From Escherichia coli (GTDB lineage Bacteria > Pseudomonadota > Gammaproteobacteria > Enterobacterales > Enterobacteriaceae): 64,000 bases of DNA. Each line of letters starts with the position of its first letter. Position 1 is the stretch's first letter. This document shows positions 58,301 to 61,300 of the stretch, in pieces. The stretch lies in NCBI RefSeq assembly GCF_024298765.1, contig NZ_CP101210.1. One strand, written 5' to 3'. A program made the position numbers.

Positions 58301-61300
58301 ATTGGCTGAATGGTGCACTGAGATATCTGTTCGACAATTGTCACCCTGATCAACCGGTGGATGCCGGGGCTTATCTGTCCTATCTGGAGAGTCAGGCTCG
58401 CCGCTTTGTCTTCCAGCGCTTTTTAGCGCCTGGTGAAGGGGCTTCCTATTACCAGATGCTCTACCTTGATAACGCCCTGTTGCCCGCCATCAATGTGGAT
58501 GAGAGTTGGCACAAGGTGATTACATCCAAACTTCGCTTCGGTCATATCGAGAACAACTTTGTCTTCAACTTCCTCGACTATCTGCTGTGGGTACGAGATC
58601 GGAATAGCGACAAAGTTGCTGGCTCCTTTGAGTTCACTTTCCGCAGCTCGGTGGAGCACTTCTCACCCCAGCATCCGATGGATGGCTATAAACCGGTTGA
58701 GCAGAGTGCACTCCATTCGTTTGGCAACCTTTGCCTTATCAGCCACAGCAAGAACTCGCGCTTGAGTAACTTCCAGCCGCAACAGAAGCAGGAGCACTTT
58801 GAAGCAAGCCTTGCCAATAACCAGACTGATAGTCTTAAATTGCTTGCTATGATTCGGCTGATGAAAGATAAAGGTCGTTGGCTGGAAGATGAGATAGCTG
58901 TGCATCAACAAGATATGTTGCAGGTCTTACTATCCAATCAAATTCAGCAATAACGGATTGAATCTGTTGGTGATGCTGCCAACTTACTGATTTAGTGTAT
59001 GATGGTGTTTTTGAGGTGCTCCAGTGGCTTCTGTTTCTATCAGCTGTCCCTCCTGTTCAGCTACTGACGGGGTGGTGCGTAACGGCAAAAGCACTGCCGG
59101 ACATCAGCGCTATCTCTGCTCTCATTGCCGTAAAACATGGCAACTACAGTTCACTTACACCGCCTCTCAGCCCGGTACGCACCAGAAAATCATTGATATG
59201 GCCATGAATGGCGTTGGATGCCGGGCAACCGCCCGCATTATGGGCGTTGGCCTCAACACGATTTTCCGCCATTTAAAAAACTCAGGCCGCAGTCGGTAAC
59301 CTCGCGCATACAGCCGGGCAGTGACGTCATCGTCTGCGCTGAAATGGACGAACAGTGGGGCTACGTAGGTGCTAAATCACGTCAGCGCTGGCTGTTTTAC
59401 GCGTATGACAGGATACGGAGGACGGTTGTGGCGCACGTCTTCGGTGAACGCACTCTGGCCACACTGGAGCGTCTTCTGAGCCTGCTGTCGGCCTTTGAGG
59501 TCGTGGTATGGATGACGGATGGCTGGCCGCTTTATGAATCACGCCTGAAGGGAGAACTGCACGTTATCAGCAAGCGATTTACGCAGCGCATTGAGCAGCA
59601 TAACCTGAATCTGAGGCAGCATCTGGCAAGGCTGGGCAGGAAGTCACTGTCGTTCTCAAAATCGGTGGAGCTGCATGACAAAGTCATCGGGCATTATCTG
59701 AACATAAAACACTATCAGTAAGTTGGAGTCATTACCCAGCTCATCGCGCAGTGAGCCAAAATCCGCATCTGAAGCACGGTCAAAAAGGTAATCCAGTTTG
59801 CGATTTACGTCGCTCAGCTGGTTGGTAACTATTTTCAACCCGGACTCCAGATCACCTGGGCCAGCTTCAAGGCAGCGCCGCAGATACTCTGACCGATTAC
59901 CACCTGAAACCAGGTCTATATAGGCCAAAAGTTCATCTGATACTTTTGCGGTTATTGTTGGCATCCAGTCCTCACTTTGTGCATTTTTTAAACGAAAAAA
60001 GGGTGTCTAATACGGTGAAATCATAGTATTACCAAAGTAATAAATAAAAATTGTTTTAAATCAGTAGGTTAGATTAGATTTGTAATGCCTGGGTAATACC
60101 GCAGCATGGCTAAATTTGGTTTTTTTTCTTTTAAATCAGTTGGATAGCGTGATTTATCACGCTGCGTTAGGTGTATAGCAGGTTAAGGGATAAAAAATCA
60201 TCTTTTTTTGGTAGGGCGATCTCCGTAGGTTAAGGGTCATTTGGCTAAAAAGCGTCCTATTCTTTGATGGTCATGCTTGCATGACCATCTGAGCAACCAA
60301 AAACTACAGATAAACTACAGATAAACTACAAAAAACGTTTTGCCTTAGTATTGGAAGACTACAAATAGACTACAATAAAACTACAAAGAAACTACAAAAA
60401 ACATGACAGACTACAAATAGACTACAAGAATACTACAGATAAACTACAAAACTCGATTGACCCCTTCTTACGAGTGTTGTAGAGTCATTTTCATACAACG
60501 GAGGGGGTTATGAATAAACCAGCAGATCTGAAACCCCGCAACTTATCGGCTGCTGTCAGATTGCGCCTAAATGAAATCGAGAACTGGCTGGACAGAGGGC
60601 TAACGCGGCATGAAATTGCTGAAATCCTCGACAGCGAATACAGCTTTTCGGTAACAGCCAAAGGGCTTGAGATGGCACTGTATAGAACGCGGCAAAACCG
60701 AAAAAATGTATTGCACAATACACATGATAAGAGTAGCGCGAAGGGTGCAGCGGAAAGTGTATTGCACAATACACAACCGTCTGAGCCTGAAGCGCAGGAA
60801 AGTGAAAAAGCAGAGAGTCCCGGCATTATTGATAAAGAATTCTTCAATAAAATCGGTGAGAATTTCGACCCTAAGAAGTTCAACAAAAAATTCTGAGGTG
60901 ATTTATGAAAGTAGCGGTAATTAATTACAGTGGCAGTGTTCGTAAAACCTTAATTTCATCTTACCTGTTAGCTCCGCGCCTGACTGGTGCAAAGTTCTAT
61001 GCGGTAGAGACTATCAACCAGTCTGCTTCCGATCTGGGTATTGAAAATGTGACCAGTTTTAAAGGTGACGACTTCTCACGTTTGATTGAGGGGTAATGAC
61101 TCCAACTTACTGGTAGTGTTTTAGCGAAGTTAAGTGACACAATAGTTTAATCTGGAGGAATTAATGAAGAGTTATGAGTAATTTTAATTTTCTAACAGAC
61201 ATCAGCCCTGAACTCGCTCAATTTGGTAAAAGTGCCGAGCTGTATTACCATGATGATAAGCAGGTAGCACTAGTGAAACTTAGGTGTTTTACTGAAGTAG

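Follow-up and report, generated by a model that had tools for sequence, protein, structure and literature searches.

Palindromes within a plasmid stbA gene of Escherichia coli: putative sites for a SprT-like metalloprotease

Binding sites inside coding sequences are known from a few bacterial systems, such as lac O2 in lacZ, gal OI in galE and parS in spo0J/parB of Bacillus subtilis. Here, we describe a related arrangement in a 64,000-nucleotide stretch of Escherichia coli DNA (contig NZ_CP101210.1; hereafter called the window), where a plasmid-type stbA gene carries two copies of a palindrome. Our analysis suggests that these palindromes are probably double-stranded DNA sites placed in the coding DNA of the disordered linker of StbA, that their likeliest binder is Mpr, a SprT-like protease encoded by related plasmids, and that they take part in autoregulation of mpr, with the copies in stbA as auxiliary sites. 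As with lac O2, gal OI and parS, a dyad site within an open reading frame (ORF) is combined with a primary site elsewhere, and the DNA serves both a protein code and a binding code. Unlike in those systems, stbA has up to four copies, which lie in a disordered linker and occupy all three frames across lineages, while the presumed binder is a protease and not a protein of the LacI/GalR or ParB type. The distance from the stbA sites to the primary site at mpr is ~1.4 kb, and any looping or spreading would be hypothetical.

The host gene resembles the StbA systems of R388 and IncN plasmids, since it encodes a bona fide StbA with an upstream 11-bp array beside the origin of transfer (oriT). R388 StbA binds direct repeats of the stbDR/stbS kind, and the papers that describe this protein do not mention the palindromes (PMC3098194; bioRxiv 10.1101/2022.04.29.490116). 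In contrast to the stbDRs, the palindromes do not co-vary with StbA's N-terminal domain, and the stbA gene of R388 lacks them. A second likeness is with KorA and ArdK, which keep leading-region genes, including the metalloprotease-domain gene ardC, switched off through short repeats near the promoter (PMC9723621, PMC3937220). The half-site GTATTG is shared, and negative feedback with an overshoot after transfer is the logic to be expected. However, ArdK binds direct repeats at the -35 box, and a KorA operator overlaps the -10 box. Moreover, the two do not always occur together: the palindrome of IncX3 comes without ArdK, and R388 encodes ArdK but has no palindrome.

The third likeness is with the Spartan/SprT/Wss1 proteases (PDB 6MDW; PMC5127644). 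Mpr has an HExxH SprT-like domain, its model superposes on human Spartan, and dependence on DNA binding is a trait of the family. The known members bind DNA without sequence specificity, whereas the co-variation found for Mpr would imply sequence-specific docking. In the searchable literature, whose coverage leaves out older IncN papers, we found neither these palindromes described nor any SprT/Spartan-type protease reported to recognise a specific DNA sequence. Both binding sites within coding sequences and leading-region genes under autoregulation have precedents; new here are the multiple copies in a disordered linker, their use of all three frames, and a protease as the likely reader.

In the window, TGTATTGCACAATACACA occurs exactly twice on the plus strand, at 60707-60724 and 60758-60775, with 51 bp from start to start. 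The ORF at 60510-60896 reads the copies as N-V-L-H-N-T-H and S-V-L-H-N-T-Q. Both copies, their spacing and these peptides had been reported in the initial annotation, and we recovered them from the sequence and by pattern search. The motif had been described there as an 18-bp palindrome. Its 7-bp arms TGTATTG and CAATACA are indeed present, but the symmetric core is only 16 bp long (TGTATTG-CA-CAATACA, with the 2-bp centre CA), and the trailing CA of the 18-mer is part of the direct repeat and not of the palindrome. Accordingly placed, palindrome 1 spans 60707-60722, where it is also a mosaic junction, and palindrome 2 spans 60758-60773, with arms of 8 bp if G60757 and C60774 are counted; both are of the T-type defined below and neither is assigned to a strand. 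In 100 dinucleotide-preserving shuffles of the window, matches to TGTATTGCACAATACACA with at most 3 mismatches averaged 0.06 per shuffle, and none reached 3. Beyond these two copies, no member of the palindrome family was found within the 64-kb window.

The ORF that contains the palindromes is a genuine IncN-type StbA. The complete gene (60510-60896, plus strand, 128 aa) was identified with the NCBIfam profile NF041290 (StbA_2) and by alignment of homologues. The match has an E-value of 2.5e-61 and a score of 205.7 bits against a cutoff of 100, with residues 7-128 corresponding to profile positions 1-123, and PF28167 (StbA-like) is precomputed on all StbA homologues. Besides the profile match, the gene has the position of an stbA (beside oriT, upstream of stbB, and divergent from the genes of the relaxosome, the type IV coupling protein and the relaxase) and the array of ~11-bp repeats. 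According to the alignment, StbA consists of an N-terminal DNA-binding domain up to about residue 65, a variable linker with the palindromes and a conserved C-terminal tail. It had been proposed that the downstream part of the ORF might be non-coding. This does not hold, because the whole ORF fits the StbA model, the frame is open in all homologues, and the C-terminal tail that follows the palindromes is conserved. The stbA segment is present in 1745-1759 PLSDB plasmids (~1,750), chiefly from Klebsiella and Escherichia.

We compared 10 IncN-like stbA alleles with 29 motif copies. The codons of the motif are essentially fixed, as GTA or GGA, then TTG CAC AAT, then ACA or CCA. The base preceding the motif is always T, while the residue at that place is N, S, G, T, P, D, Y or H. 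Since this T is fixed across eight residues, the conserved block matches the palindrome and not the codon boundaries. A divergent IncN lineage has TGGATTG-CA-CAATCCA, a mirrored double change that converts V to G and T to P in every copy, and the IncN frame thus reads VLHNT for the T-type and GLHNP for the G-type. Other stbA genes read the same DNA differently. In L141, TGT ATT GCA CAA TAC A lies in another frame and encodes CIAQY; in the acetic-acid bacterium Novacetimonas (L024), TGG ATT GCA CAA TCC A encodes WIAQS; and in plasmid pIEC33019 of Pseudomonas putida (L135) and in L142, G TGG ATT GCG CAA TCC AG is read as V-D-C-A-I-Q. A single stbA (L140) even holds two sites, 23 bp apart, in different frames.

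Translations of the palindrome family were found in 37 of 150 StbA-like representatives (50% clusters). One such peptide, GSHDP, predicted the DNA TGGATCGCACGATCCA with the compensatory change TGGATCG-CA-CGATCCA, which was confirmed in the DNA. The longest DNA string common to stbA genes at 25-27% protein identity is the palindrome. A functional peptide would be kept regardless of codons and frame, which is not the pattern observed. Instead, the presence of the palindrome in all three frames with differing peptides shows that selection acts on the DNA and not on the peptide, and its placement in the linker in three frames suggests that the location within stbA is itself selected. Homologues in which synonymous changes destroy the palindromes but preserve the protein had been named in the initial annotation as the refuting result; the outcome was the reverse, with the palindrome kept and the protein altered.

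Taken over all loci, the sites form a family of 16-bp dyads, TG[T/G]A[T/A][T/C]G-YR-C[A/G][A/T]T[A/C]CA. Only 5 arm types are seen among the 62 perfect sites, and every change in one arm is mirrored in the other, as expected of a cognate site with dyad symmetry. Their 2-bp centre is always a pyrimidine-purine (YR) step (CA/TG in 50, CG in 10 and TA in 2), which is consistent with kinking of the duplex by a protein at the dyad.

The only gene that always adjoins the site is mpr. In the IncN1 plasmid L007, one palindrome lies 17 bp before the start codon of mpr and another after the ORF that follows stbC. The IncN2-like plasmids L008, L009 and L011 have one or two palindromes between stbC and mpr, and the IncN3 plasmid L010 has one 13 bp before mpr and another after the post-stbC ORF. 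In every plasmid scanned whole, the extragenic palindromes share their type (T or G) with the copies inside stbA, and a same-type site upstream of mpr is present in L007, L008, L009, L010, L011, L135, L141 and L142. The earlier suggestion that the ORF carries internal regulatory sites therefore finds support at the level of sequence evolution, because the DNA is kept while peptide and frame change, and the same palindrome stands in an operator position before mpr. The window sites are probably not operators of stbA itself, and would rather be extra binding sites for Mpr; a consensus scan found no promoter inside stbA.

The association with mpr extends well beyond IncN plasmids. A pattern scan of species-representative genomes yielded mostly chance singletons (~500 expected by calculation), and only multi-site loci are informative. 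In these, found in a Neisseriales island and in plasmids of Burkholderia, a pair of palindromes precedes a SprT-like gene. When ten loci were picked solely by Mpr similarity, a palindrome was found upstream of mpr or its small operon in nine (P. putida, pMBUI2, a PromA-like E. coli plasmid, IncX3, P. aeruginosa, IncX5, a Salmonella Poona plasmid, IncU and a Phocaeicola plasmid), and an Agrobacterium plasmid was without. Mirrored variants occur among them, with TGTATCG-TA-CGATACA in IncX3 and TGTAATG-YR-CATTACA in the Bacteroidota plasmid. A metagenomic sample provided 80 Mpr loci, 69 of them with sufficient upstream DNA; a site was present in 47 of these 69, in most cases at 0-60 nt from the start codon, and 9 more had degenerate or new symmetric variants. 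R388, which has stbABC and ArdK and no mpr, has the palindrome nowhere in its sequence. With the Phocaeicola plasmid included, the module of palindrome and mpr crosses phylum boundaries.

Some loci show further peculiarities. In the Neisseriales island (L018, 7639-8616), the SprT-like gene is divergent from a gene for a KfrA-like coiled-coil protein, followed by a tyrosine recombinase, and both palindromes lie in the shared intergenic region. In the Phocaeicola plasmid (L154), TGTAATG-YR-CATTACA occurs at 2325, 2441 and 3307 around the SprT-like gene, with TAGTATTTT before each copy. In the IncU plasmid from Aeromonas (L152), an inserted qnrS2 cassette separates the two G-type sites (961-1018) from mpr (1555-2211), and the arrival of this resistance gene has thereby uncoupled mpr from the sites upstream of it. 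In the IncN3 allele L010, where stbA is on the minus strand, the arms of the first stbA site (3820-3850) are extended to 14 bp (CTGATTCTGTATTG-CA-CAATACAGAATCAG), which gives a 30-bp near-perfect palindrome within coding sequence.

Mpr has an HExxH motif in a SprT-like domain (Pfam PF10263), its linker is acidic, and its C-terminus holds a zinc ribbon (CxxC...C...C). Its AlphaFold model has a pLDDT (predicted local distance difference test) score of 90, with the human Spartan protease domain (6MDW) as top structural match. The protein contains a confidently modelled loop, G-x-P-G-G-x-x-x-G-[Q/E/D]-x-M, which is nearly invariant except for the residue after the third glycine (Q130 in IncN1 Mpr). 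This residue co-varies with base pair 3/14 of the palindrome. Among proteins with G-type sites (G:C, n = 25) it is E in 23, Y in 1 and D in 1, and among those with T-type sites (T:A, n = 32) it is Q in 21, D in 10 and E in 1. The rule of E versus Q or D thus holds in 54 of 57 Mpr sequences (Fisher p = 1.3e-12). Column 130 carries a mutual information of 0.80 out of a possible 0.99; the column ranked second has 0.52. When column 130 was left out of a neighbour-joining tree, site type still changed at least 11 times on it. Of 8 T/G pairs without phylogenetic overlap, 7 agree with the rule, which is also obeyed by the degenerate sites found later. A second correlated position is R99, which is Arg in 22 of the 25 proteins with G-type sites and varies elsewhere.

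Acidic side chains tend to contact cytosine, Gln adenine and Arg guanine, and the contact chemistry is plausible for E, Q and R. The pairing of Asp with T-type sites departs from these tendencies and is seen as a correlation only. Co-variation between a residue and a base pair is expected of a cognate binder, and it is this co-variation that makes Mpr itself the likely protein to recognise the palindrome.

These observations can be combined in a model. The primary dyad would be the one directly upstream of mpr, which lies in the leading region and encodes a zinc metalloprotease of the SprT/Spartan kind with a zinc ribbon at its C-terminus. Mpr would bind this dyad, probably as a dimer, via its glycine-rich loop, in which residue 130 would read base pair 3/14. 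Binding at the mpr-proximal sites would then lead to negative autoregulation. Leading-region genes are known to combine repression with a burst of expression after transfer (PMC3937220). The one to four extra copies in stbA, upstream of mpr, may be auxiliary sites that contribute to cooperative or looped repression, as do the auxiliary operators in lacZ or galE. Alternatively, they might tether the DNA-dependent protease beside oriT/nic and the StbA partition site.

Several results weigh against this model. Mpr has no canonical DNA-binding domain, as its model matches the Spartan protease domain only, plus the zinc ribbon. Three proteins break the residue rule (L143 with Y, L191 with D and L228 with E), and no Mpr residue was found that tracks site position 6 (T versus C). 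Consensus scans placed no clear sigma-70 promoter relative to the mpr-proximal sites, and the term operator therefore describes position only. Not all sites are at promoters, as those at 35226 in L007, 2093 in L010 and 6797 in L135 lie between convergent genes; of these, the one in L007 looks like one of two once-adjacent sites upstream of mpr, split by insertion of the ard/ccg region. Moreover, the window contains no SprT-like gene, such that a site at mpr is seen in the related plasmids and not in the window.

Possibly, Mpr is a sequence-addressed Spartan-like protease, for which the palindromes are docking labels on the incoming plasmid. We regard this extension as tentative. Mpr would dock in front of mpr and also within stbA, where nic and the StbA partition complex lie at a distance of a few hundred bp, and would cleave DNA-bound proteins during establishment, such as the covalently attached relaxase, StbA complexes, and restriction or nucleoid proteins of the host. 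Autoregulation would then be only one consequence of docking.

An alternative explanation might be that the palindromes are operators of another trans-acting factor, for instance a repressor of the KorA/ArdK family, a plasmid regulator or a host protein, in which case Mpr would merely be regulated and the correlation with residue 130 would be indirect. The absence of a classical DNA-binding fold in Mpr favours such a factor. The experimentally defined ArdK operator of R388, GTATTGACACCTATTGACA, shares GTATTG with the T-type half-site, and the ArdK half-site GTATTGACA truly resembles TGTATTGCA. ArdK also represses ardC, an analogous leading-region metalloprotease gene (PMC9723621, PMC3937220). 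In addition, ArdK-family proteins differ in their recognition helix between T-type and G-type IncN-like plasmids, and the CUP repeats of IncN1 hold the G-type half-site GCACAATCCA four times. Yet regulator and site do not always occur together. Searches of the complete IncX3 plasmid L148, of L143 (20 kb), of L144 and of the window revealed no homologue of ArdK/KorA, whereas R388 shows the converse, and no palindrome lies upstream of ardK-like genes. No protein other than Mpr is common to the IncN, IncX3, PromA-like, Burkholderia, Neisseriales and Bacteroidota loci; IncX3 and IncN-like plasmids have in common only type IV secretion system parts, H-NS/Hha, a resolvase and Mpr. A host factor cannot account for T-type and G-type plasmids in the same hosts, and the co-variation of the Mpr residue holds after phylogenetic control. 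We therefore consider another trans-acting factor unlikely.

In L007, the CUP repeats (36316, 37553, 40451 and 2316 reverse), which are reported ArdK targets, contain GCACAATCCA beside CTATTGTG, and TGTTATCCG resembles part of lacO.

Candidate binders other than Mpr were considered one by one. StbA is rejected since the palindrome type is independent of the type of its N-terminal domain, unlike the upstream direct repeats, and since sites also occur in StbA-less elements. StbB has discriminating columns, but in a small, phylogenetically confounded sample, and it is absent from non-Stb elements. StbC has a C-terminal transmembrane helix and no match to a DNA-binding family, and is absent from many site-bearing elements. 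ArdK/KorA has the half-site likeness and the helix differences in its favour, but fails on co-occurrence and on the lack of sites at ardK promoters. The small ArdR-like ORFs beside mpr (56-121 aa) are mutually non-homologous and have no DNA-binding Pfam matches. Among well-known regulators, the consensus sequences of LexA, CRP/FNR, LacI-type proteins, DnaA and parS misfit in spacing or sequence. A ParB/parS centromere comes close in length and in its 7-2-7 layout, but the parS consensus, tGTTNCACGTGAAACA, differs in sequence, and no ParB is annotated in the IncN plasmids L007 and L008.

All StbC proteins examined (L007, 34331-34699; L008, 17171-17539; and homologues) have a hydrophobic, Gly/Ala-rich C-terminus that looks like a transmembrane anchor. 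StbC may thus be a tail-anchored membrane protein.

The palindromes might also act as nucleic-acid structures, through a hairpin in RNA or in the transferred single strand or through pairing between copies, for example as a translational operator or as a structure that recruits or activates a protease. Arm changes are compensatory at positions 3, 5 and 6, with single cases at 2 and 7. The sites lie just 5' of the ribosome-binding site of mpr, in a leading region that enters the recipient as single-stranded DNA. Spartan-type proteases are activated by DNA structures. Their dependence on DNA has been described (PMC5127644). Against a structural role, the hairpins are predicted to have little stability (-2.4 to -6.4 kcal/mol), intermediates of the G-U type were not observed, and the innermost G:C pair is invariant although it cannot form around a 2-nt loop. 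Most arm positions are invariant across phyla, which points to sequence read-out and not to mere pairing, and the restriction of the centre to YR steps is typical of protein-induced kinking. The sites occur in both orientations relative to transcription, which also argues against a hairpin. Rfam gave no family match, apart from one chance sub-threshold microRNA hit, and pairing between RNA copies is rejected because the centres are not consistently complementary. A structural role is hence improbable.

Very improbable is a functional peptide motif, xLHNT, that is repeated in StbA's C-terminal domain for interaction with, for example, StbB or a host protein and that leaves the palindrome as a by-product of codon choice. 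The motif is indeed found two to four times in most IncN StbA alleles, in a domain needed for full activity of R388 StbA (bioRxiv 10.1101/2022.04.29.490116). However, the unrelated peptides CIAQY, WIAQS and DCAIQ from other frames of the same DNA effectively refute it, V>G and T>P change jointly exactly as the mirror bases demand, the flanking T is kept across eight residues, and identical sites exist in non-coding DNA. The view that the pair is a functionless by-product of a recent 51-bp tandem duplication can draw on the variable copy number, on an allele shorter by exactly 51 bp and on hybrid alleles with crossovers inside the repeat, but it is hardly tenable, as the sequence between the copies is unrepeated, Tandem Repeats Finder (TRF) detects no 51-bp tandem array, the 16-mer is 100% conserved between genes at 25-40% protein identity, and the palindrome recurs in other phyla and in non-coding positions.

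The stbA region of the window is a mosaic. Its traK-oriT part (85%) and the part from 60707 onwards (89%) resemble classical IncN1, while its repeat array and the N-terminal domain of its StbA resemble an IncN2-like lineage (66%). The similarity to IncN1 resumes exactly at 60707, at the first palindrome. In the hybrid allele L012 (3201-3285), a crossover within the middle palindrome has produced the hybrid site TGGATTGCACAATACA, and it is allele L002, with 336 bp, that lacks exactly 51 bp. The number of palindromes per stbA allele ranges from 1 to 4. The L012 hybrid, the 51-bp loss in L002 and the alleles with three or four copies show that the copies act as substrates for homologous recombination and slippage. 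The window sites have served both as a recombination junction and as end points of a 51-bp duplication or deletion.

The element in the window is a relic that consists of oriT, stbA and a truncated stbB, without mpr. Since mpr is missing, its two T-type sites are orphans, that is, copies of the auxiliary type only. They could matter only if an Mpr of the Q/D type were supplied in trans from another replicon.

The gene order in the window is traK'-oriT-stbA-stbB', with equal synteny in L003, L006, L135 and L139-L145. The 5' part of a traK-like relaxosome accessory gene was found by blastn at 59737-59964 (minus strand), where it forms part of the ORF 59656-59964; its downstream side is cut by IS1, and the N-terminus of its product looks like a ribbon-helix-helix. 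The segment 59737-60330 has 85% identity to the traK-oriT region of the IncN plasmid L007 (blastn), and within it an IncN-type oriT-homologous region occupies 59965-60300 on the plus strand. This region contains an inverted repeat, AGCGTGAT-TT-ATCACGCT, at 60146-60163, followed by the nic-like GGTGT/ATAGC at about 60170-60179. The equivalent position in R388 carries GGTGCGTATTGTCTATAGCCCAG, and it is by analogy with R388 that GGTGT/ATAGC is a putative nic.

Next to oriT, TRF detected an array of 11-bp direct repeats, ACTACA[A/G]ATAA, at 60301-60450 (plus strand), with 2.7 copies at 60301-60330 and 8.7 copies at 60358-60450. It is presumed to be bound by StbA as a centromere and operator of the stbDR/stbS kind. 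Its type follows the type of the StbA N-terminal domain, with ACTAC[A/T] in the window and L008, and TACATCA in L007 (classical IncN). A promoter-like sequence, TTGACC-17-TAGAGT (60457-60485, plus strand; from a consensus scan only), is likely PstbA. Downstream of stbA lies the truncated stbB (60905-61096, plus strand), with the first 62 of ~233 codons of a ParA-like protein. Residues 1-62 match positions 1-61 of 233 of profile NF041292 with 78 bits, which is under the 200-bit cutoff because the gene is truncated, and the segment has 89% identity to the 5' end of stbB of L007.

Directly upstream (59024-59721, plus strand; 59656-59964, minus strand), ORFs that resemble InsA/InsB of IS1 truncate the traK-like gene. 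The IncN segment traK'-oriT-stbA-stbB' is therefore a relic, with IS1 as its boundary on one side and the break in stbB (61096) as its boundary on the other. Upstream of IS1, a 680-aa ORF (56911-58953, plus strand) has a DGQQR motif typical of DUF262/GmrSD-like nucleases and is a possible defence gene. On the other side, 3' of the truncated stbB (61165 onward in the window, plus strand; 6975-11335 in L001), a 979-aa ATPase of the AAA family and a protein with tetratricopeptide repeats are annotated in the near-identical plasmid pQnrS1_005237. This pair may be a defence-type two-gene module inserted into stbB.

For annotation, our results mean that part of a coding sequence is constrained by a second, non-protein code. 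Such a code at the DNA level explains the odd repeated LHNT/LHNP peptides of StbA, the mosaicism of stbA and its variation in copy number. Among the major carriers of KPC, NDM, IMP and qnr genes are the IncN, IncX3/X5 and IncU plasmids. The module sits in their leading region, which enters a new host ahead of the other plasmid DNA. Should Mpr dock at the palindromes, a very large uncharacterised family of plasmid proteins (>5,000 homologues) would gain a testable function and a defined DNA target. Mpr would be the first sequence-specific member of the SprT/Spartan/Wss1 proteases, with a natural specificity code of Q/D versus E against T:A versus G:C. If the palindromes in fact serve as docking labels on incoming DNA, they would define a new class of leading-region establishment function, common to IncN, IncX, IncU, PromA-like and Bacteroidota plasmids. 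Remnants of stbA like the one in the window carry orphan sites, which could titrate Mpr from co-resident plasmids.

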